The position numbers and the translations under genes are program-made. From a virus, in the IMG/VR virus record IMGVR_UViG_3300026519_000239, positions 1 to 64,000 of that record: a stretch of 64,000 nt of DNA, one strand, 5' to 3'. A model generated the notes under the pieces. It searched no databases. It saw nothing but the letters and a program-made list of their open reading frames with translations, and was not told the DNA's origin. Position 1 is the first letter of the stretch, and every line of letters begins with the position of its first letter. Positions 830 to 31,900 of this stretch are shown here, one piece after another.

Positions 830-1336
830 ATGTCAGTTACAAATTCTACTTATATCGGTGCATTAAACCATCCTGAAGGATGGTGGAATGTACATAGAGA
901 GGCGCTCTACCATACTGATCCAAGATTGTTCCGTGGATCAGCTCTTTTACAACACCCATATAACCACCCACATTCTATTCATGGGTCTGTTAAGACTGGG
1001 TGTTATGAGCATACTGGTTCGTACCTTCCATACCATTCTTGTGAACCTATTGGAATTAAGTGTAATCAAGAATTGGCCCCTGGCTGGGTTCTTGGTAAGA
1101 AGTATAAGAAGTGCGATCTAGTGGCCGTATGTTCTCCTACAGGAGACACATATATTGCTCAGAGTCTTATAGATGATAACTCTGAGTATCCGTTGACTGG
1201 GGTTACGATGACACCTCCCACATGGAAGCTCACTAACCTCAAGACAATCATTGATGGATTAAAGGCTGGGTGTACAGCTACTGTTCCTGTGAATACACCT
1301 CCACGTATCCTTAATGTACAAGCTATCGGAGGTTAA
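830..1336 (+). CDS. Putative virion appendage base protein ending in an orphan Ig A-strand (NTPPRILNV)
   Basis: 168-aa first gene of the Ig-repeat operon. Its last codons GGA GGT form the RBS of the next gene. Confidence 0.7.
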   Translation: MSVTNSTYIGALNHPEGWWNVHREALYHTDPRLFRGSALLQHPYNHPHSIHGSVKTGCYEHTGSYLPYHSCEPIGIKCNQELAPGWVLGKKYKKCDLVAVCSPTGDTYIAQSLIDDNSEYPLTGVTMTPPTWKLTNLKTIIDGLKAGCTATVPVNTPPRILNVQAIGG

Positions 1337-1340
1337 GAAA

Positions 1341-2891
1341 ATGGCACTTACAGGTACTTTGAAATTTAATGTCGTTGATGACGAACAGTCTCAAGTCAAG
1401 CTGACTATTGATTGGGGAGATGGTCAGACATTTATAGATCCTGCTGTACCGTCCAACGGGCAGTTGTATGAGAAGAGCCATACATATGCTACTGCTGGTA
1501 CGTATACGTATAAGATTACTGCTGATGATTTACAGTCACAGAACAATATTGGTATTCACCAAGGACAATGGACTATCACAGGGGCAGCAAATAACAATCC
1601 AACAATTCAAGCCATTCAAGATAAGGTATGGCCTGTAAACCAAAGTATTGTTCCATTTGCTGTTTTGGCTTCTGATCCAGATGGGGATACTCTCACTTAT
1701 ACCGTCACTGGACTTCCTGCTGGTGTTACGTTTAATCCGACTACCAAGCAAATTTCAGGTACGCCTACTGTAGCTCAGAATGCTGTTCCTGTTACCGTGC
1801 AGGTTACAGATAGTAAAGGTGGGTCAGCACAGGTACAGTTCAATGCTACTGTTATTGCCCCTAATGTAAATAATCCACCTGTCATTACATTCACAGGAAC
1901 TCCAGCATTTGATGAGGCAGGGAATGTTATCGGTGTTACGCCAAGTGCTACAGATCCACAAGGAGACACTATTACTTATCAGTGGAGTGTTGTGTCTAAG
2001 CCTGCTAGTTCTGGTGCTGTTACCTTCTCTAATCCAACTAGTATTAGCTCTGGCATCAAAGTTAATGCGCCTCTTTCTGGTGGCACCTATGTGTTTAGGC
2101 TGACTGCTACAGATAGCAAGGGTTCTTCATCCAGTAAGGACTTGACCGTAGTCAAATCCACTACTGTCAACATCCCCCCAATTGTCCTGTCTCGTGCTGA
2201 TGTCAACACTAAAGTAGGTACTGCTACTCCTGCTACTTCTCCAATTGTCGTTGAAGTTAATGATCCAAACGGGGATAGCATCACCAGTATCACCGCTACT
2301 GGCTTGCCACCGGGGATGACAGCTTCCCCGAAGCTGCTGTTCAATAAGCTGGAGATTTCTGGTACTCCAACTACTGCCGGTTCATACACAGTTACAGTTA
2401 CAGCTACAGATGCTCAAGGAGCGCAAGGCAGCAGGGCATTTAACATCATTGTTGCTGCTATTAATACGCCACCTATCATCACTGTGGATCAGTTTGGTCC
2501 TGTTAATACAGGTGGTGGCGGTACTACTAATACCCCACCAGTTATCGCTACAACTAGTACTAGTACAACGAAAACAGGCGGTACTGTTATCACGCCTAAG
2601 ACTGAATTTGGCATTGTTGGCTCAGATGCAGATGGCGATACGTTAACGTACTCATGGACTCCGGGTACTGGATTGAGTTACACAGATTTCTCCAATGCTC
2701 AGTCTATTGATACTACTGTGACGTTACCGACTGTAGCAGGCACTTACGCCTTGACGCTTAATGTAAGTGACGGCACTACTGCTGTATCCAAAACCTTTAC
2801 TGCTGTGGTTCAAGCTGCTAGTGGCGGCGTAACTGGTGGTGTAAGCAATGCTGCACCTACTCTTGAACTTGGCACGCCAACAGGTGGTTAA
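1341..2891 (+). CDS. PKD / putative-Ig (He_PIG-like) repeat protein
   Basis: WGDG PKD motif and repeated N.PP.I...DPDGD.LTY...GLPAG...ISGTPT units. ATG at 1341 follows GGAGG. No signal peptide. Confidence 0.85.
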   Translation: MALTGTLKFNVVDDEQSQVKLTIDWGDGQTFIDPAVPSNGQLYEKSHTYATAGTYTYKITADDLQSQNNIGIHQGQWTITGAANNNPTIQAIQDKVWPVNQSIVPFAVLASDPDGDTLTYTVTGLPAGVTFNPTTKQISGTPTVAQNAVPVTVQVTDSKGGSAQVQFNATVIAPNVNNPPVITFTGTPAFDEAGNVIGVTPSATDPQGDTITYQWSVVSKPASSGAVTFSNPTSISSGIKVNAPLSGGTYVFRLTATDSKGSSSSKDLTVVKSTTVNIPPIVLSRADVNTKVGTATPATSPIVVEVNDPNGDSITSITATGLPPGMTASPKLLFNKLEISGTPTTAGSYTVTVTATDAQGAQGSRAFNIIVAAINTPPIITVDQFGPVNTGGGGTTNTPPVIATTSTSTTKTGGTVITPKTEFGIVGSDADGDTLTYSWTPGTGLSYTDFSNAQSIDTTVTLPTVAGTYALTLNVSDGTTAVSKTFTAVVQAASGGVTGGVSNAAPTLELGTPTGG

Positions 2892-2893
2892 CG

Positions 2894-4573
2894 ATGGCTG
2901 ATGGTACTCTTATTATTCCATACCGTGTTACTGACGCTGACAGTCCTGCTAGTAGCCTTCGTATTAATTTCCTTGTACGAGATGCCAGTACGCAAGCAAT
3001 TGTTAGTACGTTTTATGTAACCCCTACAGCTTTGGGCCAATGGCTCAACGCATCCAAGGTACTTCCTGCCGGTACATACACAGTTGACGGAATTGTTACT
3101 GACGGTACAAATGCAAGTTCTGTTCAGAAAACTAATCCTGTTACTGTGGTTCCGGGGCAGGTAGTTACTGCTTCTTGGATTGGAGGCAACACAACATTTC
3201 ATATTGATTGGTCTAAGATGTGGCCTCTGGCCAATATCTGGAAGTCCTGTAGAGACCCAAGGAGAAGCCCTCTTGGTTCCTCTGGTACACAGACATGGGA
3301 TAGCAATGATGAATTAGTAACCAATACAGGCACTGTCAGTACAGCTATTGGAGTGTCCTACCCTGAGTTTCCTAAAGGCACTTATGTCGTTGAGTGGGAT
3401 GGCTCAGGGAGTATGACTGTGAATGGTGTCAATGTTCCTTCTACCGGCGGTACTGTGGCTATCCAATCAGGTGCTGGTCCAGAAGGGTCTATTTCTGTGG
3501 ATATACATGGAGTATGCACAGGAATCCGTATTTACAAAGAAGGACATGACCCACTGAAAGCTCACCCTGATTTTGTAGCCAAATTCTCTCAGCTTGGCGT
3601 TATCAGATTTATGGATCTAATGGGTACCAACTCATCTGTAGTTGACTCCATTACTGCACTTCCTAAGCCAGAAGATAGCTTCTATACAAGACAGTCTACT
3701 TATACTCATGATGGTGCAAATCAAGCCAGATACGGAGATGGGTTGCCTATTGAAGTTTGCTGCATGATTGCCAAGGAGTGTAATGCTATTCCTTGGCTTC
3801 ATTCATACCATTTACTGGATGATGCTGGCATTACAGAGATGGCACGGAGAGCTAAATCTGTGATGGGTACATTGCCATGTATTCATGAGTTTTCAAATGA
3901 ATGCTGGAATGATCAGCCTGATTTTCAGCAAACCAACTGGTGCCGTCAGAGAGGCATTGAAGCTGGTTTAGACCCAGCAAACCAATACCAAGCAGGCTAT
4001 CGGTACTACGCTAAACGGGTCATTGAGGCTGGTAGGGCATGGAAATCAGCCTATCCAAATACTGTCAATGTTTTGGCTTGGCAAAAATTAGAAGCTCAGT
4101 ATAAGGACTATTGGCAGCTCAATAATGTGTTGAAGCCCCAGATTGATTCTATGAATGGCATGGGCGATATAGACGCTGTATCTATATCTGGGTACCACGG
4201 CGGGCAGATAGTAAGTGTCGCGGATTGGTTTAATAATGTTGATGCTTACATGGCAGACACTAAGTCCTCATGGCAGGGGTTTAAAATTAATGTTGCTGAT
4301 GCATGGGGCAACAAGAAGTTCTTTGTTTATGAGGGAAACTGGTCTGGCATGGGGACAACTGATGTCATGCGTGATGCTCGATTTCAAGCCAAATTTGAGC
4401 AGCATTTACAAGATGCTTTCGATGTAGGCATCGACTTGTACTGTGTCTACACCATCATTGCTAAGAATGGCTCTGGGCAAGGATGGGGCATTTTGGATTA
4501 TCAAGGCCAAGCAACGTCTCCGGGATGGCAAGCTATTCTTGCTAAACTGGGACTCAAGAGTTTTCAGGTTTGA
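2894..4573 (+). CDS. Ig-like domain fused to a clan GH-A-like glycoside hydrolase ('cellulose-binding protein' type)
   Basis: IRFMDLMGTN, GLPIEV..., PWLH, HEFSNECWN (candidate acid/base NE) and VYEG (candidate nucleophile) motifs. Confidence 0.7.
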   Translation: MADGTLIIPYRVTDADSPASSLRINFLVRDASTQAIVSTFYVTPTALGQWLNASKVLPAGTYTVDGIVTDGTNASSVQKTNPVTVVPGQVVTASWIGGNTTFHIDWSKMWPLANIWKSCRDPRRSPLGSSGTQTWDSNDELVTNTGTVSTAIGVSYPEFPKGTYVVEWDGSGSMTVNGVNVPSTGGTVAIQSGAGPEGSISVDIHGVCTGIRIYKEGHDPLKAHPDFVAKFSQLGVIRFMDLMGTNSSVVDSITALPKPEDSFYTRQSTYTHDGANQARYGDGLPIEVCCMIAKECNAIPWLHSYHLLDDAGITEMARRAKSVMGTLPCIHEFSNECWNDQPDFQQTNWCRQRGIEAGLDPANQYQAGYRYYAKRVIEAGRAWKSAYPNTVNVLAWQKLEAQYKDYWQLNNVLKPQIDSMNGMGDIDAVSISGYHGGQIVSVADWFNNVDAYMADTKSSWQGFKINVADAWGNKKFFVYEGNWSGMGTTDVMRDARFQAKFEQHLQDAFDVGIDLYCVYTIIAKNGSGQGWGILDYQGQATSPGWQAILAKLGLKSFQV

Positions 4574-4586
4574 GGGGTAAGAACAG

Positions 4587-6164
4587 ATGGTTGATTATGT
4601 ATTGAAGTTCCGTGTACGGGATGCTGAACAAAGCGCGTGTGATGCAACAGTTGAGTGGGGAGATGGTAGTGCTAATGAGTCTATTATTGGAATTGCTGCT
4701 GATGACTCTCAAGTAGTTACCAAGAATCATAATTACGCAACTAATGGTACGTATACATTACGGATCACTGCTGATGACAAGCAGTCTGATAACAACACTA
4801 CTGTCTGGTCCCAGTCAGTGACAGTCACAGGCAACACTGCTGCAAACTCTGCTCCTACAATTACACAAGTGCCTGATAAGACGTTTATAGCCGGGCAGGC
4901 TATTACGCCAATTCAGATCAGTGGTACCGATCCAGACGGTGATACCGTGAGCTTTACGGTATCTGGCTTACCTGCTGGTTTGACTTATGATGCAACCAAC
5001 AAGCAGATCACTGGTACGCCCACTGGTACAGGCAGTTCCACCATTACTGTAGTTGGTTCAGATGGCAAAGGTGGTCAGAGCACGATGACATTTAATGCCA
5101 CTGTTAGCGCTACTACACCTGCCAACAAAGCTCCTGTTGTTGGTTCAGCTATACCAAAGATTCAAGTACTCAAAGGACTGGCTAAGACATTCACTATCCC
5201 ATCTAATGCGTTTTTTGACCCTGATGGTGATGCGTTGACATACTCACTGACTGGGGATAAGTTCAGCGCAGCCCTAACTGGCAATACGATCACCTTTAAT
5301 AACAGCCTGAATAGTGGCTATTTAATGGAGATTACAGCTACTGATCCTAGCGGGGCCAGTGCAAAGCAGACAGTGCAGGTAGAATTAGTAACAGTAAGTC
5401 CCGGTACTGCTCAGGACATGTCATTTACCAATACTGGTCCAATTGCTACTTTTAGCTTTGTTCCTAAGACTTCTCCTATTTTATCGCCTCAAGCCAAGCT
5501 AACTGCTGAAATTGATTGGGGGGATGGATCAAAGAACACCTATATAGGGCTGACTGCTGGTTCTCAGGTACAAAGGCAGCATACATATTCTGCTAACGGC
5601 AACTTTACTGCTAGAGTGCGGGTTAAGCACGATGGTGCTACTGATACATCGTACTCTAGCCCGATCAGTGCACTCGTCACCATTACAGGAGCCGCTCCTA
5701 ACAATAATCCAGTAATTCAGGCAATTGGCAATAAGACCTTTACTCAAGGTACTGCTATTACCTCTATTCCTCTTGTTGGGAATGATCCTGATGGGGATGC
5801 GGTCACATTCACAGTCACTGGGTTGCCTGCTGGCTTGAGTTATGACGCTACTAACAAGCGGATTGCAGGAACACCAACCGCCACTGGTTCAAACATCGTT
5901 ACTGTGAACGCTTCTGATGGTAAGGGAGGAACTGCTAGTACTACGTTTACCATCACCGTCAATGCTGCTACTCCGACCGCTATCGCTATAGCTGATAACG
6001 TGGGCACTAAGAATCCTGGCGAGACATTCACATATGACTTAGCTGCCAATGACACACCCTGTAGTCAAGGTACGACGACCTACGAACTGGTGCCTGGATC
6101 TGAAACCAATTGTAGCGTAACTATTGACCCGATTACGGGTGTAGCAACAATCACTGTGCAGTAA
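4587..6164 (+). CDS. PKD / He_PIG / dystroglycan-type cadherin-like repeat protein
   Basis: Two WGDG PKD units, two GLPAGL.YD...GTPT units, an F.DPDGDAL cadherin-like unit and a truncated final Ig domain. Confidence 0.85.
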   Translation: MVDYVLKFRVRDAEQSACDATVEWGDGSANESIIGIAADDSQVVTKNHNYATNGTYTLRITADDKQSDNNTTVWSQSVTVTGNTAANSAPTITQVPDKTFIAGQAITPIQISGTDPDGDTVSFTVSGLPAGLTYDATNKQITGTPTGTGSSTITVVGSDGKGGQSTMTFNATVSATTPANKAPVVGSAIPKIQVLKGLAKTFTIPSNAFFDPDGDALTYSLTGDKFSAALTGNTITFNNSLNSGYLMEITATDPSGASAKQTVQVELVTVSPGTAQDMSFTNTGPIATFSFVPKTSPILSPQAKLTAEIDWGDGSKNTYIGLTAGSQVQRQHTYSANGNFTARVRVKHDGATDTSYSSPISALVTITGAAPNNNPVIQAIGNKTFTQGTAITSIPLVGNDPDGDAVTFTVTGLPAGLSYDATNKRIAGTPTATGSNIVTVNASDGKGGTASTTFTITVNAATPTAIAIADNVGTKNPGETFTYDLAANDTPCSQGTTTYELVPGSETNCSVTIDPITGVATITVQ

Positions 6165-6182
6165 TTTTAGGAGTTTTTTGTT

Positions 6183-7238
6183 ATGCCATTTTCATTTGAG
6201 TACAACATCAAATGCAACGGAACAGTGGTTGATACAGCCATTGTTACTGGACAGATTAGCAACAGCGCGCCAGTAATAACCTCAGCGGCTAGCAGTGTCA
6301 CAAAGACAACGTGTACTATGTCCACGGCTGATTTTGGTATCACTGTCACTGACCCTAATAGCGATACTGTTACCTACTTATGGGAAGACGTTTCGCCAAA
6401 TGGGTCAGTGACTATCGCTGATAATACTTTGCTGGTTACTGATATTTCATTCAATGGCGTATCAGGCTCAACTACTGCATCTTATGCTGTCAAACTTACG
6501 GTATCAGATGGGAACTTGAGCACATCGCAGGTATTCAACATCACTAAAGAGGCCAATAAGCCTGCTCAGTTGGAATCCAAGCTGCCTGATTTTCTCATTG
6601 AAAAGGGGGCCGCATTTAGCTATCAGATACCTACGTCTTCGTTCTCTGATCCAGAGAATGATCCGGTGTCGTTCTTTTTGTCAGTAGGGATGCCTTCCGG
6701 TATTAGCTTTGATAAGACGACCAGAACGTTTTCAGGGACTCCGACGTCTTCTAACACTTATGGAAACGGCGTATTATTCAAAGATACTGGTAGCTGTGCT
6801 AATGGAGCCAGTGTTGGGGCGTGGTTTGGTTGGACTGTATATGATCAAGCTGATAGCAATAACCCGCTGAATACTGCCATGGTTACTCTGAATAACTCAG
6901 TTAATGTCCCTTATCTAGTATGCGAGGTAGGCGTCCCAGTAGATTACCCGCTACCTCCGGCGGCTTCATTTATTAATGATCCCGCTGGGAGGGCGTTCGA
7001 GCTGAGCGGTGCCTCTTTGCCACCAGGCCTGTCTGTTGACACCGCTGCTAATAAGATCGTCGGTACGCCAACAACGAGTAAGCTTGCTGGTGTATTGCTG
7101 TACTGCAAATTCGCAGGGACTATATACGCCGCCCGTCTGACATCGTTCCCGATAAAAGTGGAGCCAGCAGGCACCGGACTTCAAGTGGGTGCTACTGGTG
7201 TACTTGAGGGTACCGATCATTCATTTCCGGGGTACTAA
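6183..7238 (+). CDS. Cadherin-like / He_PIG Ig-repeat protein
   Basis: FSYQIP.SSFSDPENDP, GMPSGISFD..TRTFSGTPT and LPPGLSVD...GTPT motifs. AGGAG RBS. Confidence 0.8.
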   Translation: MPFSFEYNIKCNGTVVDTAIVTGQISNSAPVITSAASSVTKTTCTMSTADFGITVTDPNSDTVTYLWEDVSPNGSVTIADNTLLVTDISFNGVSGSTTASYAVKLTVSDGNLSTSQVFNITKEANKPAQLESKLPDFLIEKGAAFSYQIPTSSFSDPENDPVSFFLSVGMPSGISFDKTTRTFSGTPTSSNTYGNGVLFKDTGSCANGASVGAWFGWTVYDQADSNNPLNTAMVTLNNSVNVPYLVCEVGVPVDYPLPPAASFINDPAGRAFELSGASLPPGLSVDTAANKIVGTPTTSKLAGVLLYCKFAGTIYAARLTSFPIKVEPAGTGLQVGATGVLEGTDHSFPGY

Positions 7239-7239
7239 A

Positions 7240-8817
7240 ATGAGTGCTTTCTCGTTTATGTACAAAATCTCCTGCGGCGACAATGCGTTTGCCGCAGAAG
7301 TATCTGGTGTAGCTAATAGTCCATATAAAGTCGCAGTGTTTGTCATTGCCGGGCAGTCGAATACGCATTTTGGTAAAAATGACGTACCCACTACAGCACC
7401 GTTAGATCGTTTGTACCAAGTCGCCCGTGGCGGGGCCAATGATGGGACTGTTGTCCCTGTAGCATCTCTTCCGCTTGACTTCTCTAGTGCGACTTCTGAC
7501 CGCGCTGGATTCGGTGCGTTGTTTGCTAGCAAATACGCTACAGACAACCCCACGCATGATGTGATTCTTGTACCCACTGGTGTTGGGTCTACTTCTCTCA
7601 AATCTGGCGCGTGGCGAAAAGGTGGAAACTTGTATCAAGATACGATAGCCAGAGTAGCTATTGCATTGGCACATCATCCTGATGCTTTTTTAGCTGGGGT
7701 ACTGTGGCATCAAGGGGAGTCCGATGTTGGTAACGCCCAATATCAGAGTCAACTTGACGCCATGATTGCCGACATGCGCTCTGATATCGGTGTTCCTGAT
7801 GTCCCGTTCTTGCTTGGTACACTGTCCCCTTTGTGGCTTGAAAATAATCAATCGGGGCGGGATATCGATACCATTATCAGAGGAACTCCATCACGGGTTC
7901 CAAACACTACCTTGGTGGACGCTGCTGACTACCCGTTATTGACTAAGTACATGCGGTCTGAGGAGATACATTTCTCCTATAAGGCACAGCGTGTTTTGGC
8001 CGACAGATACTACCGGGCTTTTCTTGGCCGGCGTAGATTGGAAGCTGCTCACGCTATTTCATTTACCACGAGCGCGCGCATAGTAGTTGCTGCTGGATTT
8101 GATGTCGATTCTTATATCGTGCGTTATAGTAATAATGGTACTGACATGCAGTCCGTGAGCAGTAACGGTGAGTTGAGTATCAGCGGTTTATCTCCAGATA
8201 CTTCGTATTCGGCATTTGTGTACGGAGTAATTAACGGCGTTGAGACACAGCCTTTGCCTGTACAGTTTAGGACTATGTCTGAAGCTCCTAAACTAGCGAT
8301 AGTTGGGGTAAGGGATAAGCCCACGAACGAAGTCACTGGCAACGTACCAACTTCAGTGGTGTACCCCGATTTAAGTACCAGTGAGCACGGATGGTACAAG
8401 TACTACAACGTATTTTCTGGTGGCGGAGGGCTTCGTACTGACGCGGTAATACGTGTTGGCGACGCTTATAAAAAAGTGATTCATTTTACGATTGAAACTA
8501 TGCCGAGTTCACGTGGTAACTTGGTGAGTTCTAATCAAATATTTTCACATCACCTGAGCGTATTTTCAGACGGGCGCATAGCCGCTGGGCATGGGACAAA
8601 TTTTACCGTTGTAGAATCGGCGCCTGGAAAAATTCAGGCAGGTGTGTGGTACACAGCAGAAGTCGAATACGACGGTAGCAACCTCTCCTTGCATCTGGAT
8701 GAGGAGCTTATAGCATCTGCTGCTGTCGCTCCGATACCTGTAGATGGTGCTGTACAAGTTTTCGCTGCTGGCAGCAACGCGGTAATAGGTGCATTTGACT
8801 ATGTACTTGTTACTTAA
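7240..8817 (+). CDS. SGNH (sialate O-acetylesterase-type) carbohydrate esterase with FN3-like and LamG/ConA-like domains
   Basis: AGQSN (block I), WHQGESD (block III), EEIHF (variant block V); GLSPDTSY FN3 motif; WYTAEVEYDGSNLSLHLD LamG-like motif. ATG at 7240 directly follows the upstream stop. Confidence 0.85.
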   Translation: MSAFSFMYKISCGDNAFAAEVSGVANSPYKVAVFVIAGQSNTHFGKNDVPTTAPLDRLYQVARGGANDGTVVPVASLPLDFSSATSDRAGFGALFASKYATDNPTHDVILVPTGVGSTSLKSGAWRKGGNLYQDTIARVAIALAHHPDAFLAGVLWHQGESDVGNAQYQSQLDAMIADMRSDIGVPDVPFLLGTLSPLWLENNQSGRDIDTIIRGTPSRVPNTTLVDAADYPLLTKYMRSEEIHFSYKAQRVLADRYYRAFLGRRRLEAAHAISFTTSARIVVAAGFDVDSYIVRYSNNGTDMQSVSSNGELSISGLSPDTSYSAFVYGVINGVETQPLPVQFRTMSEAPKLAIVGVRDKPTNEVTGNVPTSVVYPDLSTSEHGWYKYYNVFSGGGGLRTDAVIRVGDAYKKVIHFTIETMPSSRGNLVSSNQIFSHHLSVFSDGRIAAGHGTNFTVVESAPGKIQAGVWYTAEVEYDGSNLSLHLDEELIASAAVAPIPVDGAVQVFAAGSNAVIGAFDYVLVT

Positions 8818-8837
8818 TTTAAAGTGGAAAGTATCTA

Positions 8838-10469
8838 ATGGCTATCATTAAAATACCTTACAAGGTGACAGACTCTGATAACCCAGCTCCGTCATCTATT
8901 ACTGTGACCATATCCATCTACTCAGACCAAGGATTCGTAAAGGAGTTCAATGTAACTCCTTCTGCTTTAGGTGTTTGGCTTGAAGCAAGTACTGATGTCT
9001 CACCAGGTAGATACTATGCTCGGGGAACTGTTACCGACGGAGCCAAGTCAGGCACAGCACAAGCCACGCCTACGGTGATCATCGGCGATCTAAGACTGGA
9101 ATCCATGAAAGCCAATGTTCCAGCGTATGGGTGGACTGATCTGCAAGCTGATGCTGACAAGTTCTTGAATGGCCAATCTTGGTTTAGCAACGAGACTGCT
9201 GAAGATGCCCACTGGAATCCATCTGCTGTGCAGGACGACACTTCTCCATATCGAGGCTCTGCTAATCCAGTCTCCATAAAGCAAGCTTTCCAGTGGGGCG
9301 CTACTATCGTTGATTGCGCTATCGCCGGGAGCATGCTGCTCGGTAAGGGGAACTCCACGGGGCAGCCGTACATGGACAAAGTTATCAACTACCTCAAGGT
9401 AGATGCTGGTAACTCTGTCTTGGATTTCAGCAATACATCCACGTGGATGTCAGACGGCTACCTCAATGGTGACGCTAATCGGCTTGATGTAGCAATGTGG
9501 GCAAGTAGGCAGATCGAGGCTTGGCGGTATGCTAGGCCTTATGCATCTGCTGCGGATAGAACCACCATTGATACCTATATTCGCAATATGGCTAGATGGT
9601 GCGTGGCTTGGCCAGCAAGACTAGTTCAAAAGAACTATTCCGATGGGAATTGGCGAGCTGATACTACTGATGCTATGCCAAGCACACTCATACAACGTAC
9701 AGGCACCAACTACTACGATCAGTTTGCAGGAGGCTATCTGTACGAAGGTGGCCCTAAGATGGCTTGGACTGGTGCTGGTGGGATGGAGAACCGTCAGTTA
9801 ATGTCGTTTGGTACTGGTGCTGCTGGTGCCCAGATCGTGGGGGATACTCAGACCCTGGCTGATGTGAAGAAGTTGTTCTTCTTATTCCTCAAGTATTACC
9901 TTCAGGGAGATGCCTGCGATATGCAGGATATGGTCAGGAACTACCAGGATACTGGCAATAACGGTATCACCTACCCAATAGTAGCTGTCGATGGTTTGGT
10001 GCGCGCTGCTGACGCTCTGGCGCTATCTGGTGATACGTCATTACTCACGATGGAGACCACTGGTGGGGCAGTCCATAACGCTGATCCCAGTAGGAATACT
10101 ACTTCCACTCAGCCAAAGAGCTTGAAGAAGGCGATCCAGCGCATCATTGATATTGTCACGAGGAAAACCACTCTCTATGCAGTAGGGCATGGTGGAGATG
10201 CTACGTACATTCTGGACTTCCAGACTGGCTCAGATAGCTCAGGAAACAGATCAAGGTGGTCTCCTGCTTTCATCATGGGTAGCTGGTCGTATTTGTATCC
10301 TGATCTAAAAGACAAGTTACTGGCTATTGGTAACTGGACTGACCCCGGCCTGCCTCCAAAGGGCACGTCACCTGATGGCGACTGGTCTGAAGCCACAGCG
10401 CGGCATGGACAGTTCACCTTGAAGGGTGACCGTAGGTTCATTGGGTTCAACGTAGATAGGGGGTATTGA
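8838..10469 (+). CDS. Ig-like domain fused to an alginate-lyase-like (alpha/alpha) polysaccharide lyase domain
   Basis: N-terminus is paralogous to ORF 2894. The helical body has ENR.LM...A.GA.IVGD and D..R....G.TY patterns typical of alpha/alpha-toroid lyases. Confidence 0.55.
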   Translation: MAIIKIPYKVTDSDNPAPSSITVTISIYSDQGFVKEFNVTPSALGVWLEASTDVSPGRYYARGTVTDGAKSGTAQATPTVIIGDLRLESMKANVPAYGWTDLQADADKFLNGQSWFSNETAEDAHWNPSAVQDDTSPYRGSANPVSIKQAFQWGATIVDCAIAGSMLLGKGNSTGQPYMDKVINYLKVDAGNSVLDFSNTSTWMSDGYLNGDANRLDVAMWASRQIEAWRYARPYASAADRTTIDTYIRNMARWCVAWPARLVQKNYSDGNWRADTTDAMPSTLIQRTGTNYYDQFAGGYLYEGGPKMAWTGAGGMENRQLMSFGTGAAGAQIVGDTQTLADVKKLFFLFLKYYLQGDACDMQDMVRNYQDTGNNGITYPIVAVDGLVRAADALALSGDTSLLTMETTGGAVHNADPSRNTTSTQPKSLKKAIQRIIDIVTRKTTLYAVGHGGDATYILDFQTGSDSSGNRSRWSPAFIMGSWSYLYPDLKDKLLAIGNWTDPGLPPKGTSPDGDWSEATARHGQFTLKGDRRFIGFNVDRGY

Positions 10470-22961: not shown

Positions 22962-22987
22962 GTGCCTATAACCTTTTGGAGATCGTA

Positions 22988-25900
22988 ATGAGTAAGCTAG
23001 ACGATCTGTTGTCAGCTCTATCGACTACTGCTGATCAGCGAGTAAACGCCGCAATGGATAAGTACACCAACATCTTTGGTGGTCCTTCTCCTGATCAACC
23101 AGTTCAAGTCCCAAAACAACAAGAGGCTGAAATTGCCTCACAGCGAGCGCAAACAACAGTAGAAGCACTGAATCCTCAACAACCTGCCCCTGAAGAAGCA
23201 CCACTTACTCCTGAACAACGTTTGGCTCAGATCAGCGGTGTTACGGATATTGATCCAAAGAAGGAGTACATAGAGGTCAAGACACCTGACGGCAAATCCA
23301 AACTAGTTGATGCTACCAGTTCAGATGGAGATAACATCACCAGAGCTATCAGGAACACGTATAACAATACAACTGAGCGTGGGTATGCACTGGATACATG
23401 GGAAGTTCCTCATGGTGGCAAGAAGCAACAAGAAGCTTTCTTCAACAGTAACAAGGGACAGAAGCAGCGTGAAGCAGCGGCTCGTATCCTTGGTATTTCT
23501 CCTGAGCAGGTTACCGCTGAGCACATCTTCACACTTGGGCAGAATGCAGCCAAAGAAAGAGCCAGACTCATTGCTGAGCATGGTGGTTTAGTTGGTTCAG
23601 TAGAGCTTGGTGATGTACGTAATGATCCAACTACAGGCAATCGAGTACTGTCTTCTACCAAATTAGCGGATGGTACTGATCTTCGTGACTTATTGAATAC
23701 GCCTCTACTAAATGCTGATTTCTACAGCAAATATAATTCCAGAGGTAGAAGAGATTACGAACTTGGGTCAACTAAGAATCCAGATGGAGGGGCAGTTCTC
23801 AGTGACGCTGAAGCTGCTAATCCATCTGCTGTTGGTTCTTTGGTTCAGATTGGTACCAGTGCTATTGATGCCTTCTTGCGTACTGGTTTAGGTGGCGTAA
23901 ATGCAGCCGCTAATACTGGTGTACAGATTGCGGCTGCTTTACAAGGCGAAGGTATTCAAGACCTTACACCAGAAGACAGGCAGATATTTGACAGGATTCG
24001 TGACACTGAGAAGAAGGGCAAGACGCTACTCAGTAAGATCGAAAAAGACCCTGTAGCTTCCAAAATAGATGTCATTGACCAAATGACAAACCAAGCCATT
24101 GAAGCTACTGGAGGTACGCCTGAGCAGCCTGTTGATAAGCTGGATAAGTACATGCAGGAAGCACTTGCTCCTGAAGAATACGCTATTTGGAAGGGTACAG
24201 CTAAGAGACCTGATACTCCTATCCAGAACAATGCTTTGGACTCTCTCACTAAGAAACCAGAGGGTATTCTAGATACGCTATCTCAATCAGCGGGCTTAGC
24301 TGCTGGATTGATATTTGGTTTCGGTACTGTGAAAGCTGCTGCTAATCCATCTGCTGCTATTCAACAAGCCAGGCAGCAAGTTGAAGGTACTGGTTTAGTA
24401 GACAAGACAGATAAGACTAAGTTTCAAAGATACAGTGAGGTTAAACAGCAACAGGAAACTGCTGCTAAAGCCATTGCTAACCCAGTAGATACAGTACTAG
24501 GGACAGAAGGGCGTAACGATCAGCAAGACAGATTTAGAGTTAACGCCAAGACTGGCAGAGCTGAGTATGTGCCTATGCACAACGCATATGGTGACAAAGC
24601 AGCCATGGAGATTCTCGATGCTGGTGCTGAAAGGATGGTTAAGGCTGGCGAGAAAGGAGATTACATAGGAGTAGTAAGTGAAGCTGCGTCTACATTATAT
24701 GACGTAGTAACTAAAGAGAAGACAGCTACAGCCAGTGCGTTTGCTGATGTTATTGGTTTAGCAGCAGCAACGATGTTTAACAAGAAAGGTGCTGTTGAAG
24801 AAGGTACTGGTTTCGTAGGGAAACTTGCTGGATTCGTAAAGAATCTGCCTAAAGGAGCTAATGGTCCTCAAGCCCTTAATACTGCTTTCAAAGCAGCCAA
24901 CATCGTTGGTTTACAGCAAGACAAGCTCACTGAAATGGAAACCAAATTCACTGAGCTGAATAAAGGTGAAGCTCCTACCCCAGAAGAGTATGAAAAGATC
25001 AAAGATCTATCTGTAGTAGCTTCTGCTGTGGATTTACTAGGCATTGCTATGTTTACTGGACCAGGCGGTAAGGCAATGTCTGAGATGCTCAGTAAAGCCA
25101 CTACCAAAAAAGCTGGACAGTTTGCTAGCAAAGTACTAGCTGAGATGGCAGGTACAGGTATTAATGGGTTGGATGAGGTAGCTGTAGAAGCCATTACTCA
25201 ACTCGGTACTAGGCAGCGTCAAGGGGACTTCGATAAGAAAGCATGGGCAGTATCTTTTCTCCAAGGGGCGCAAGCAAAAGCTCCTGGGGCTGTGCTTGAA
25301 GTAGCTACTAAAGGTATTCCATCTATTCCCGGAGATGTACTGGACGGCACTGTGAAAGCAGTGAAGATGTACCAGCGTGTCAATGACGTTGCGAAGGGGC
25401 ACAAGTTCACTATTGATGAAGAAGGGAATGTTCACTTCAAAGGGAAGGTGATGCCTGGAATGGTTCCTCCTGATCCAGAGACAGGTAAGTATCCTACTGA
25501 GGTTCCTAAGGATGTAGAGAAAGCTATCAAGCAGATGATCTACAAAGGGCAGGGAGATGCTGTAGTTAAGCATATTGCCAATACGAGAGCAGTGCTTGAA
25601 GGAGAGTTTACTGAAGAAGATCTTCAGAAACGCATCATTACTCCTTCTGTAGATATTGTTACAGAAGCCTCCATGGCTGCTGATCAGGCGTTCGTTGATA
25701 CTGCGGAGGTAGAGTCTCCTGAGACCGGAGAAACCGTTCCTGCTGAACCTGCGGTGCCTCAAGAGCTTGATGTTACTAATCCAGAGGAAGTTATTGCTGT
25801 ACTCAAGAACCAAGACATCCCGGTGGTTCAGAGAGCAGCTATTACACTGGCCGTGCAGTCTCGTATGCAGACTATTTATGGGCAGACTGTAGCTCAGATG

Positions 25901-28900
25901 CAAGAAGCAATGACTAAAGGAGAACTGGAAGGAGACAAAGCTGAAGCAGCTATTGCTTTATTGGATCAGTATGAAGCTTGGATTGATGTACTGAGTACAC
26001 AGGTTGATTCTCTGCCTAAGAATGAAAGGGTAGAGGCAGGCGTTATCTATCAGGAAAAAGGAGATCAATTACTTGCAGATATTATTCGTGGATCAGCACC
26101 TGAAGTAACCAAACAGGACACAGCCAAGAGTCCATTGGTTCAGTCGTACAAAAAAGTACTGGATTACATCAACACTCGTGATGAGGAAGATAATAAGACT
26201 GCTGATGATGTACGAAAAGAGGTACTTCAAGACGGAGAGAATGCATCAGGTAAGAAAGGACTTATGACTCATATGAAGGCTTTGGCTGTCGCGGGTATCA
26301 GTAAGAACCCAGAGGCTTTGGCTTATGCAAGAGCTGAGGTTAATAGCTTTCTGGCTTCTCAAACTGACAAGCTAAATAAGCTGAAAGAGGCTGTAGATGC
26401 ATATGAAGAAAGTGGCAATCCTGTACCTGTTTACTTCAAGAGCAACATAGCCAAGAAAGAACCAAACTTTGTTGTAGATAATCCAGGTAAGGTACGTAAC
26501 TTTATCAAGGTCATTGAGCAAGAAGTTCAGATGATTGGTGAAGTAGCTAAGATGGGAGATGAGCTACACAACAAGTTGAAGAACAATGAACCAATACTTG
26601 AGGATGCGTTGGAGAAGCAATTAAAAGAGACAGGTAAAAAAGTTTCTGATATTGCTAATGCTCCTAAGCAGAATCAGAAGAAGGAAGACAATGTTGCTAC
26701 CCAGAAAGAAGATAAAGCACCTGTTAATGCTGAAGTACAGACCACAGATAAGGCTGATACTGCTCCTACTAAGACACAGGTGGATGCTAAGAAAGTTGAG
26801 GATAAGCCAAAAGAAAAGCCAGTAGCTAAGAAAGCCAAGAAGAAGAAAGAGAAGCCAAAGGTAGATGTACTCGGTGACGAGGTTAAAGCTGAGCCTACAC
26901 CCGAAGAAATCAAAAAAGATACTGAGGATGCTAAACAGCAACAAGAAAAAACCAAAGAGCAATGGCTTGAAGATCCTCTTGTAGCTGACATTAAAGCTGC
27001 ATTTGAAGAAGCTCAGAATCAAGATCCAGAAGATAATGCTGATATAGCTGATCTTAAGCCTGTTCTGGATCTCACGAAGACTGAGAAGGTAGCCAAGGAG
27101 ACTTCCAAGGAAGCAACTCCTATGGTGAAAACAATACAGTCCCATACGAAGAACGTATCTATCCTGATGAAGCAGATAAGTTCTCGTAGGTATATGCCTC
27201 CGGGACTGAAGAAGCTGATGGAGTCGGGTAAACAACTTACTACTGACTACTTCTTGAAGGGGAGGAAGAATCCTACTGGTTTGTTGGCTCTACCTTCACT
27301 GACTGCTATCGGTAATTATCTCAAGGATGTTGGAGATACTGGCCTTGAAGCATTCAGGGCAGATTTGCTTGGTGAACTTGGTCCTGCAATGAAGAAGGAG
27401 CTATTCAAGCAATTCCAGAATTCAGCTAACTACGTGATAGGTAGAAAGCTATCTTTGGATAAGTTAGCTACCAGTCCTATTGGTTTGTTTCTAAATGAGA
27501 AGAATGAACTGGCTCCTCAGCTACGTAATGCAATGCTGCACACTGCTGTTGAATGGATTGCTGATAAAAGCGTAGCCAGTGTATTGAAGACTGACAAAGA
27601 GGTGTATGCATCTCTTGGATTAGACATCAAATCAGACTTCATTACTCCTTCTGTACTGGATGCTCTTAGAGACATGGGAGAGCTGAGATCTAAGTTAGCT
27701 GAACAGTTGGGCAATCGTGTACTGGAAGGGCTTGGTATTGATCTTAACTCCGATGTACCTGATGCTGGATTCAGACAGAGGCTAGTTGGTTCTATTGGAT
27801 TATCCATGCTGTCTGCTATGGCTAATATCAAGGATAAGAAAGGAGAGCCAATCATTCACTTCAACAGAGTTCCCTCTGAGTTGATGGCTGAACTTACTGA
27901 GACTGCTTCTGTATCCATGGAAGCCAGTCCTGTGTATGTCAGTCTCAATATTCAGAGAGATGAGTATCAACGTCCTGTAATGGATCAATCAGGTAGGGTA
28001 CGTGTAAACAATCTATTGGCTTACAAGATCAGGAAGAAGACGAATCAATCTAAAGAAATATACAAGAAGTACATGGAGCTGGCTTTTGGTAAGAAACCAA
28101 TAACTCGTACTACGAGCTATAAGCCATTCAAAATGCGTAAGCCAGAGGATATTAAGGATCGTCCTACTCGTAATAATAGCTATGGGCAACTAAGTGAAGC
28201 TGAGTTGGATCATGTGAACCAACTGCAACAAGTAGCTTTCAAAGCCAATCCACTGATCAAGATGATGGATCTTAAAGAAGGAAGGATGGCTATTGCCAAG
28301 ATGTTCGGGTACGTAGAACCCACTAGAGATGGTGATATTCCTTCTTTACCGCTTGATAAGGTGAAAGGTCAGCTAGCCAAGAATGAAGCGATTATCCGTG
28401 ATCTGGATGCTGTACTGGATAAGCTTTCAGAGCAAGACCAAACCATAGAAGAACTCACTAAAGCTAGAGATGAGGCTACTGACCCTAAAGACAGGGAACG
28501 TTTACAACGTGAGTTAAATCAAGCCAGAAAGAAAGAAATCTATTTTCCATTCAAGATAAGTACATTTGGTCGTGCGTTGGATAACGCTCAAGATCTAAGT
28601 ATTCAGAGAAGCAAGATACACAGGAATATCTTCACTCCTGCTGAGTCCACTCATACATTCCCGATGAGCGATACCAAATCTATGGAGGCCATTATGAAAT
28701 CCTTCATAGAGCCTCTTGGTTTGGATCGTGTGCGGATGGAGAGTGATCCTACAGGAGAGTTCATGGATAGATTTGCTATCAAGAATGCCGATGGTACATA
28801 CACTGCATCTGATCCTGTAATAGAGAAGGGAATACAGGCTATGCAGGCATTTCTGAGAGATGACTTTTACAAGCCAGAAGACATTACAGCAGCAGTGGAT

Positions 28901-31900
28901 GAGCTTGGTGAAGAAGGACACTCTTGGCTTGCTTTAATGGATGTAGCAAATATCCGTACTGCGCTTGAATCAGGCAACCCAGATGCATCGATAACAACTT
29001 ATAGCTACATCGAAGTAGATGGTATATCAAACGGAATTATGTCCATGTTAAGACAGGTGATGTCTGAATTTGATGCCAAAGAAGCAATTAATGATCCAAA
29101 TAGTTTCAGTGCTGAAGTATTGGATTTTGCGAATGCAGGCGGTATGTACATTGAAGGAGGTAAGTACCAATCCTACGGAGAGTATCTAGCTGATGGTGGG
29201 TATGACGTATACCAGAAGGTGATTATCAAAACTGCTGATGCTATGGATAGAGCAGTTACAGCCGCTAACAAGATGACTCCCAAGGATGTTACCAATCTAC
29301 GCATACGTCTTGAGAATGAGCAAGCCAAGTCAGCTAATAAACGGAACCAGTCGTTGATTGCTGAACTCAAGAGAGAGTTAGCTATTTATGCTGTTAAGGA
29401 CATCATTCCTGAGTTCGTAGTAGAGGGGACTAATCAAGTAACCAAGGGCGCAAGGAAAATTGGTAAGTCCTACGTATTGCCTAAGAACTACATGTCAGGA
29501 GACAAGGCAGCAAAGGAAGGTGTTGCTAGAGATATGTTGGATTCCATGAGAGCTGAGTTGGCTGAATTGGCATCAAAGGTGTCCCCTGTTGCTGTGATTA
29601 ACAATGATTCGAATGATGCTGATCTTAGAGCATTCAAGACTGCTGCTAAGCGTATGAATGCATTTCTAAGGCAAGTTAACCCTGAGATACCTGCCTACAC
29701 GTGGGACACAGCGAGAGAGCCTTTTAGTAAAGAACATGAAGCTCAAGCAATACAAGTCATAGTAGATGGTCTTGGTTCAATACTTGCTGATGGGTATTTT
29801 GAAGCAGCGGGTAAGTTTACAGAGACAGGAGGTAAGTCTCTGAACATTATTGGACAAGCTCAAGCCATTATTGTTAAGCACATTGCTCAGCAACGTATCA
29901 ATGCTGCGATGGAGAAAAAAGGAGGTGCTGTACTCAGTGAGGGTGAGCGTCAAAAAATTATGCAGGAGCTTGCTGATGAAGGAATTTATGTAGGAGCCAA
30001 GACACCTGATAGTGATGCTGATAGGTCATCATTCATTTTGGATGTAGTTGATCGTAAACCAATGGAAGATGCTCAAGGTGGGTACGTACAGAATGACTAC
30101 TCAGGAGACAGTAGAAGGCCCGGATATACCGTTCCTGTACGTGAGTTTGGTTTCGTAGATGGAGAGCTTGTAGATACTGGCATCAAGCCAGTGAAGTCAG
30201 CTAAAGCCTCTATATACGTTAAGCAACCTAGTTCTAAGATTGGTTTGAGGATGGCTATTGGTTTGAATATCAACCAAGAGTCAGCTACTAACAGACAGCT
30301 TGAAGGTAGCTCATATGATCTATTCGATGCTCAGTTGAATGATCCAATGAAAGATGCTGAAGCGTCTAAGAAGATCAACAAAGTATGGGAGACTTATCAG
30401 CAAGACAACTCCATGATGGAGAATGCTGTTAACCAGCTTGAGAGACTCATAGAGGCTAGCAAAAAGTTTAATAGCCCTGAACTTACAGGTGAGATCAATA
30501 GGTTCCTTGAGGAGCTTAATGATCATCCTGATAGTCCTATTGTAGGTGATACGCTGGATAAGCTACTAGTTGATGCCAAGAGCATGTCCAATCGTATCAA
30601 TCAAGCTAGAAGCCAATTCAATCAGGCTGTGAGTGTATCTGGTCAGTATGACTCTATAGGTAATGCTTATGAAGTCAAAGAATCCAATGTACATGGAAGC
30701 TCAGCTAGAAGGATTAATCTGGATACTTTCAAAAAAGGAGAGTCTGTTCCTGTAACCATGAGCAGTATTTCTATGCTGTGGGCGCAGACAAAGGCAGGGC
30801 AGAAGATTGGAGATACCAAGGAAGATGCAGCTTACATGGATGAAATATTCGGTAAGCATATTCTTCCAATGGTTCAGAGAGTACGTGGCCTCACAGTAGC
30901 TGTACAAAATAGTAGGTATGAAAGAGGTGGAGCAGCTAAGGGTAAGAATATTTTCATTAAGAGAAATTCTGCTGTACGTGAGTTAGCTACTGATATGAGT
31001 GATGCTGAGATCATGTTGCATGAGTTTACTCACCCGTTATGGGAAGAGGGATTCAGACAGGATTCATTGTCTTTGGATCAGGTCAGTAAGCTTATGGATG
31101 AAGCTATTGCTAGTGAGGAGTTCACTCCTGAAGCATTAATGGATAAGAGTCATCCTGATCCAGAAGAAGCCTACAATGCAGCTAAACAGTTGTATGACTA
31201 CATCACTTCTGATGTACATGAATTTGCTACTTTTGGTTTAACCAATGCTCGTGTACGAAGAGTGCTTAATCGCATTGAAACCAAGAAGACCAAGGGCAGA
31301 CCAAAGACACTGTTGAATCTTCTCAGGAGCATATTTGAGGCTCTACTAGGTAGATGGAAGAGCTATGAGAGTAAGAGTCCTTCTACTATTGGTGTAGAAC
31401 TTGAGAACATTGCAGGACGTTTCCAACAAGCAGCAGAAGCATCTAACAAGACTCTGTACAAGAGACTTGAGAATAAAGCATTCAAGGAGGTTAACAAGAA
31501 GATTGTAGAGCCAATAGTTGAGTGGCAAAAGAGTGTTACTGACAGAGCGCCTGATTGGAAGAAGGCTTTGGCTTTACCTGCTGGATTGCTTAGGAGTGAG
31601 TACACCACTCAGCTAGGCAAGTTAGGCGATCGGCTGGTTAAGGAACACCACGGAATATTGGCAGATGCAGCAAGGGAGATGCTTGGTCCTAATAAGGTAA
31701 CCAGACCATTCCATAGAATGTTGAGTTATGTGAATGAGCATGTGGACTCAGCAGCTATTAGAACCACTCAGGCAACCTCTCAAGTCATCACTGAATTGTT
31801 TAATAAGAAACTAACTAATAAGCAATGGAAAGCTCTTACAGATGGGTTACTGAGGACAGATGCGTATGTAGCTGAGCGAGCTATTGGTTTAGATGGATTG

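Follow-up and report, generated by a model that had tools for sequence, protein, structure and literature searches.

The window analyzed here is the first 64 kb (64,000 nucleotides) of the 74-kb IMG/VR virus record IMGVR_UViG_3300026519_000239, which we assign from its sequence to an N4-like podophage. A fibre module of seven genes lies at 830–10469, comprising the open reading frames (ORFs) 830, 1341, 2894, 4587, 6183, 7240 and 8838; these genes, and the features within them described below, are on the plus strand. Three of them form the subject of this report. ORF 4587 (4587–6164, 525 residues) encodes a fibre scaffold of PKD and He_PIG immunoglobulin-like (Ig-like) domains (Pfam He_PIG, E 2.8e-28; Big_9, 1.6e-15; and PKD_4). 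ORF 6183 (6183–7238, 351 residues) likewise codes mainly for Ig-like domains (He_PIG, 6.5e-14, with weaker K319L-like_PKD and Big_9 matches), and ORF 7240 (7240–8817, 525 residues) codes for a SASA-type carbohydrate esterase (1.3e-32) followed by an fn3-like and a lectin-like region; it matches phrog_25867, annotated as 'tail protein' (2.7e-19), and among the fibre proteins this esterase catalytic domain alone has a tail PHROG match. Across these genes a single Ig-like domain of about 90 residues, of the cadherin-like or Big_9 type, is divided into two parts carried by different proteins: ORF 4587 ends with the larger piece (hereinafter the socket), and ORF 6183 and ORF 7240 each start with a version of the missing terminal hairpin (hereinafter plug 1 and plug 2).

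The socket occupies 5970–6161, corresponding to ORF 4587 residues 462–525 (64 residues), and supplies strands A–E without F and G. A family hidden Markov model (HMM) built from 196 copies, with the window's own sequences excluded, matches the C-terminus of ORF 4587 over positions 1–63 of 94 (84 bits, E 7e-25) and the N-terminus of ORF 6183 over positions 69–93; the same HMM finds no second socket anywhere in the 74-kb genome. Plug 1 occupies 6183–6260 (ORF 6183 residues 1–26) and is recognized as an F–G hairpin by a plug HMM at 48.5 bits (E 1.4e-14). The gene junction between socket and plug (6162–6182) reads TAA TTT TAG GAG TTT TTT GTT. It contains two stops in frame and, as the ribosome-binding site, AGGAG ahead of the ATG of ORF 6183; the two ORFs share a frame across this 21-nt spacer. 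An initial annotation of this DNA had described a truncated last domain with two candidate completing partners; the HMM matches bear this out, placing the break between strands E and F and the missing hairpin at the start of two proteins, and the four motifs that it cited are found in the ORFs that it named (AANDTPCSQG and ETNCSV in ORF 4587, IKCNG in ORF 6183 and ISCGD in ORF 7240).

This DNA is present in a hydrothermal-vent metagenome, which is probably its source, and a variant that is ~99% identical is found in a second, independent study (run X2); no RNA data set is among the sequencing runs listed for it. In the latter the junction is unchanged and free of indels, as are all four cysteine codons, and the three differences in the socket (6128, 6137 and 6155) are all synonymous. 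One difference in plug 1 (6241 T>C) results in I20T, a change towards the family consensus DTATV.

Reading both stops as glycine yields a read-through fusion of 99 residues (P0008; window 5964–6260). Against 1.84 billion representative proteins this fusion has 69 matches, two of which are the window's own ORFs (P0017 and P0062), and the best of the matches cross the junction unbroken; for example, query residues 3–96 align with residues 961–1051 of P0009. Its relatives carry up to 14 tandem intact copies per protein, at 35–57% identity, and relatives of the split domain are linked by phmmer with E-values down to 1e-104. AlphaFold2, given a 59-row alignment (A3), models the fusion as a single Ig-like domain with a predicted local distance difference test score (pLDDT) of 96.5 and a predicted template modelling score (pTM) of 0.86. 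The model has seven strands, namely residues 11–16, 21–25, 38–42, 50–54 and 60–65 before the junction and 74–84 and 87–98 after it. Therefore, the gene boundary falls exactly in the E–F loop, with strands A–E of the fused model supplied by ORF 4587 and F and G by ORF 6183 residues 1–25. Modelled with no alignment, a 289-residue read-through piece stays below a pLDDT of 50 over the split domain. A Foldseek search with the fused model yields weak matches only (best E 2e-4), to Rib, cadherin and protocadherin domains and to Ig domains of phage collars, and no PDB relative was recovered by sequence. Against Pfam the split domain reaches 22.8 bits for Cadherin_4 (cutoff 25.1) with no Big_9 match over the split part; among its relatives, P0013 matches Big_9 at 86 bits (3e-24) and Cadherin_5 at 59.6 bits, and P0014 matches a tail-fibre PHROG.

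A comparable split is found on L007, a metagenomic contig of 1849 bp with three consecutive genes, where the domain is also divided at HMM position 63. Gene 1 ends at this position with …ISITIN and a stop; gene 2 (P0016, 181 residues) consists of a plug (MADYSVDYRILCGG), one complete domain and a socket ending in …ITIDVA and a stop; and gene 3 starts with a nearly identical plug (MADYSVQYRIKCDG). Genes 1 and 2 share a frame and are separated by two TAA stops, and the junction of genes 2 and 3 (TAATTTAGGAG…ATG) resembles the junction of the window and is out of frame. Thus, read-through is not the point of this arrangement. With its two sockets and two plugs, the layout of L007, the only related locus recovered, reads as a chain rather than a choice. 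A further protein, P0032, likewise ends at HMM position 63, and other apparent truncations in the family vary in where they stop and resemble contig ends. On sequence grounds, the split-domain joint is real and recurrent elsewhere.

Gene 3 of L007 (890–1846) continues after its plug with one four-Cys domain, in which the loop cysteine is shifted by three residues and an extra pair is present at the start of strand D and just before strand F, and then with about 190 residues that have no Pfam match; it may constitute a distal binding module.

Cysteine is rare in this genome, at 0.52% of the residues in ORFs of at least 200 residues, and the pattern goes beyond chance. ORF 4587 has three cysteines, and two of these are found among its final 34 residues, within the socket of 64. 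The first of these two, Cys492 (codon 6060–6062), lies in the B–C loop within AANDTPCSQG (family motif NDTpC), at alignment column 26, where 81% of the aligned copies have Cys. Its counterpart on plug 1, Cys11 of ORF 6183 (codon 6213–6215), ends strand F, ahead of the F–G turn, within IKCNG (family motif ILCDG), at column 75, where Cys is present in 82% of the aligned copies. Cys12 of ORF 7240 (codon 7273–7275; ISCGD), which aligns to the same column, is the sole cysteine in the 525 residues of that protein. When any Cys within the B–C or F–G loop is counted in the 158 full, intact copies, 147 have both members of the pair, 11 have neither and none has a single one, and the two columns rank 14th of 3403 pairs by mutual information with average product correction (MI-APC). 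The Cys-pair subfamily so delineated comprises 68 metagenomic proteins, most of them lacking a Pfam match, and the split copy belongs to it by its NDTpC- and ILCDG-type cysteines, with one Cys per polypeptide. In L007, the loop and strand-D cysteines are kept in both sockets and the turn cysteine in both plugs. As the split falls between the two positions, the pair is necessarily inter-chain, both here and in L007, and, since the halves of this strictly co-occurring pair reside on socket and plug, any disulfide that they form must be inter-chain.

In the fused model, Cys492 is placed in the B–C loop and Cys11 closes strand F; by Ig topology, these two sites share one end of the sandwich. The same topology would make neighbours of the B–C loop and the F–G turn, next to where strand C begins and pairs with the last part of strand F. 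On the strength of the covariation and the loop topology, we infer, with good foundation, an inter-chain disulfide linking Cys492 to Cys11 or Cys12.

The initial annotation had supposed that an acidic, calcium-type site was replaced by cysteines in the split copy so as to lock the partner on. At the family level such a replacement is supported: the acidic loop form is confined to the 11 Cys-less copies and is clearest in the eight of them from P0043 and P0052, which have NDTDxENDID or NDTDKDGDLD, plus TVKD, at the sites of the pair. P0012 has one repeat that has lost both cysteines and four sibling repeats that retain both. The split copy shows DTPCSQG with KCNG or SCGD instead of an acidic DxDxDG-type B–C loop with an F–G Asp. 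As a change special to the split copy, or one introduced to lock it, the replacement does not stand, because the same pair is carried by ~93% of the intact tandem copies; hence, the Cys pair predates the split. The intact repeats of ORF 4587, to which the comparison had been made, do contain DPDGD (residues 115, 211 and 400) and SDGKGG or TDPSG (residues 158, 252 and 443), but these are He_PIG repeats, an Ig subfamily other than that of the split domain.

A role in the lock for the other socket cysteine, to which the initial annotation had also pointed, is not supported. Cys509 (codon 6111–6113; ETNCSV) is the first residue of strand D and occupies column 43, where the family has G in 97 copies, C in 31, V in 28 and A in 17. 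This column covaries with column 67, just before strand F (MI-APC rank 4), such that C, V or A at the former goes with F or W at the latter and G with A, G or D; the residues of the window that fall in column 67 are Phe3 of ORF 6183 and Phe4 of ORF 7240. In the fused model Cys509 is located at the end of the domain opposite the Cys pair, beside the E–F loop where the split occurs. Given the covariation with an aromatic column, the exchange with Val or Ala and the location at the opposite end, Cys509 behaves as a small, subclade-specific core residue packing on the aromatic side chain of the plug (Phe3 or Phe4); as a second disulfide partner it was rejected on the same covariation and exchange.

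Plug 2 (7240–7314; ORF 7240 residues 1–25) is a more divergent F–G hairpin, with a plug HMM score of 15.1 bits (E 5e-4). Among 582 ATG-started candidates in the 74-kb genome, the plug-only HMM places ORF 6183 and ORF 7240 as the top two, and 0 of 5000 shuffles reach 15.1 bits. Both plugs have FSF.Y.I.C in common. The start at 7240 (TAAAATG, with GGGG seven bases upstream) retains the whole hairpin, whereas the public gene call (P0002, 519 residues) starts six codons downstream at 7258, loses half of strand F and scores 5.2 bits as opposed to 15.1. The presence of one socket and two plugs can be read directly from the sequence, with ORF 6183 as the clear partner and ORF 7240 as a weaker but significant second candidate. 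In pairwise comparisons, the pattern of one donor and two acceptors is also seen at two further junctions of the operon.

At the boundary of the two plug-bearing genes, the tail of ORF 6183 ends in GTDHSFPGY, resembling the start of a Big_9 strand F, directly before the MSAFSFMY start of ORF 7240, the frame of which is open upstream to 7156. This boundary (7156–7240) may be the scar of a cassette insertion. A frameshift fusion of ORF 6183 with ORF 7240 was considered and rejected: the overlapping frame is open from 7156 but encodes nothing recognisable.

We propose that the incomplete Ig-like domain of ORF 4587, having only strands A–E, would be unable to close its own sandwich. As one of its sheets is left with strand C only, the socket by itself is presumably unstable and would fold upon hairpin binding. 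The N-terminal F–G hairpin of a second protein would insert to complete the fold, and the fibre proteins would be joined by fragment complementation. In this proposal, the Big_9/cadherin-like subfamily would have exchanged the acidic B–C loop and the F–G turn Asp for the Cys pair, and the gene boundary in the E–F loop would divide what was ancestrally an intradomain pair, leaving Cys492 on the socket and Cys11 or Cys12 on the plug. When the virion reaches oxidizing water after lysis, an inter-chain disulfide would staple the plug in. The two plugs would be mutually exclusive on one socket molecule and, if both use it, would compete for the single socket in an either/or fashion; virions may carry a mixture of plugs, or plug 2 may be a relic.

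We lean, with caution, towards this reading as a whole, that is, split-domain complementation, an inter-chain disulfide staple and two candidate plugs. The split, the homology across the junction, the fold of the fused chain, the covariation of the cysteines and the recurrence of the arrangement are its basis, and from them we infer assembly in trans, oxidation and plug competition. Several points weigh against it. The AlphaFold2 model is of a fused chain, with complementation in trans being assumed, and the proximity of Cys492 and Cys11 is derived from topology and covariation. Phage fibres fold in the reducing cytoplasm, and the hydrothermal-vent source has variable redox conditions. About 7% of the family copies lack both cysteines, and hence the fold does not need the bond. 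Finally, the G strand of plug 2 is divergent, its score is only 15 bits, and the genome has one socket for two plugs.

Some of these points would equally suit a joint held by fold complementation alone, with the cysteines reduced and acting as packing residues or metal ligands, and with no covalent lock on virions. The tolerance of the fold to the loss of both cysteines in 11 of 158 copies, the cytoplasmic site of assembly and the reducing fluids in the source environment would all be compatible with this alternative. However, the strict both-or-neither distribution across 68 proteins is a classic signature of a bonded pair, the model shows both cysteines exposed in loops at one and the same end, and the family consensus offers no conserved His or further Cys for a metal site. 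We regard a purely non-covalent joint as unlikely, though as a serious contender.

Similarly doubtful, in our assessment, is the explanation that ORF 7240 is not an alternative partner at all, with its hairpin being a relic of cassette exchange or docking elsewhere and ORF 4587 and ORF 6183 pairing one-to-one. The gap between 15.1 bits for plug 2 and 48.5 for plug 1, the G strand of plug 2 without the family DTA motif, the balanced complement of two plugs and two sockets in L007 and the tail of ORF 6183, which looks like a leftover start of strand F just before ORF 7240, speak in its favor. It has to contend, however, with the sole cysteine of ORF 7240 falling at the pair column, a plug match that is exactly N-terminal and above every shuffle, the lack of any other socket in the 74-kb genome to which the hairpin might dock, and the one-donor/two-acceptor pattern at the other split junctions of the operon. 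That the split is an assembly or sequencing artefact, or that stop-codon read-through gives one protein with an intradomain Cys pair, is highly improbable: ORF 4587 and ORF 6183 do share a frame and their 21-nt spacer is comparable to the longest natural E–F loops, but there are two different in-frame stops (TAA and TAG) with a strong AGGAG and an ATG, the independent run has the identical junction with no indels, and L007 has the same split with one junction out of frame, the two stops here and that junction being the grounds on which read-through was rejected.

The split-domain joint with its putative staple invites comparison with several known systems. As in the Big_9 and other bacterial cadherin-like Ig domains (PF17963, PF17803 and PF17892), the domain has a seven-strand fold of about 90 residues, and its Cys-less relatives possess the canonical NDxDxDGD-type loop. 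In contrast to those domains, a Cys pair here replaces the acidic B–C loop and the F–G Asp, most members, including the split copy, fall below the Pfam thresholds, and the phage distributes the domain over two polypeptides. In chaperone-usher pili, an incomplete Ig-like subunit is completed by the N-terminal extension of the next subunit, resulting in a very stable non-covalent link; strand G alone is missing, and a periplasmic chaperone and strand exchange are involved. The mechanism proposed here is analogous, but the joint is not a member of that system: the socket lacks both F and G, a hairpin acts as donor, the partners belong to a phage fibre, and a Cys pair straddles the joint. The operon proteins scanned gave no match to a chaperone or usher.

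SpyTag/SpyCatcher is a man-made system engineered by splitting the CnaB2 domain, in which the halves are linked by an isopeptide bond. The joint described here resembles it because a pair of residues suited to a covalent bond spans the split, and in both cases splitting an Ig-like domain with an intradomain covalent bond would make an intermolecular lock. The difference is that the gene split here is natural and that the bond would be a reversible, redox-dependent disulfide.

Another comparable setting is that of the branched esterase tailspikes of the Schitoviridae, such as gp63.1/gp66 of G7C and gp48/gp49 of B2, which are modelled as trimeric and attached via N-terminal residues (PMC11654681). 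The present phage has in common with these an N4-like genome and a multi-protein adsorption apparatus that includes a carbohydrate esterase attached, here putatively, through its N-terminus, but its apparatus consists of strings of Ig-like domains for which split-domain complementation would provide the docking. Among 50,697 phage records, the fibre proteins showed no homology to known fibres or tailspikes such as gp63.1/gp66, and literature searches gave no precedent of phage fibres with strand complementation or intermolecular disulfides.

More speculatively, the joint might represent a natural, redox-lockable plug-and-socket connector with which phages build mosaic or branched appendages bearing different carbohydrate-active enzymes, an idea that we advance tentatively as possible yet short of probable. 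If so, any protein bearing a plug would snap into the socket of the scaffold and then be covalently stapled outside the cell, making the joint a natural counterpart of SpyTag/SpyCatcher; with two plugs contending for one socket, and the one-to-two pattern at two further junctions of the operon, a single genome would suffice for such appendages. For podophages, how multi-enzyme receptor-binding complexes assemble is understood in just a few systems, with trimeric tailspikes, and split-Ig docking would explain swaps of distal enzyme modules at a boundary of 25 residues. If the cross-chain disulfide is real, the covalent link would be sensitive to the redox environment, and the small hairpin (~25 residues) and socket (~64) might find use as a natural and reversible pair for protein ligation. 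Pfam largely misses the Cys-pair variant of the Big_9 domain.

The wider genome is consistent with the setting assumed above. Its portal is ~40% identical to the portals of N4-like phages of Salmonella and Klebsiella, and an ORF of 3653 residues (22976–33937) is, to judge by its length and location, the putative giant virion RNA polymerase. By these two attributes the phage agrees with the Schitoviridae that have G7C-type branched tailspikes, which have an N4-like genome with a virion RNA polymerase. No similar phage record was found for the DNA of the fibre module among the 50,697, and tblastn of ORF 4587 against the phage records returned a 100-residue Ig-like stretch in two Staphylococcus phage records and nothing else; P0016 had no match in the phage records. 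Relatives were absent from the IMG/VR contigs (with ORF 4587, P0016 and alignment A2 as queries) and from the GTDB genome contigs. Protein homologue searches recovered only esterase-domain relatives for ORF 7240 and only a self-match for P0016, and the ESM Atlas gave only generic Big_9/cadherin-like neighbours.

Within the module, ORF 1341 has PKD and He_PIG domains and its N-terminal region in common with ORF 4587 (residues 5–244 of the latter; 42% identity), and ORF 2894 and ORF 8838 have a common N-terminal domain (45% identity over 78 residues). ORF 830 (830–1336, 168 residues) is rich in cysteine, with six residues amounting to 3.6% as against 0.52% for the genome, and has no Pfam or PHROG match; it may be a further component of the appendage base that is rich in disulfides or binds metal. 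ORF 830 and ORF 1341 (window 1292–1343 and 2844–2896) each end in a lone N-x-x-P first strand, GG and TAA. The Gly-Gly codons (GGAGGT and GGTGGT) also provide the ribosome-binding site for the following gene, whose product begins with MA.GTL. Such ends look like further split Ig domains of another type, with strand A apart from B–G.

In X2, the He_PIG domain just upstream of the socket (window 5697–6003) is represented by divergent alleles, with 18 differences over 307 nt, as compared to just 13 over 1627 nt downstream of it, and one contig has 237 nt of the He_PIG region swapped for 240 other letters. Judged by these alleles, the stretch is a local hot spot of variation or of recombination between Ig repeats.

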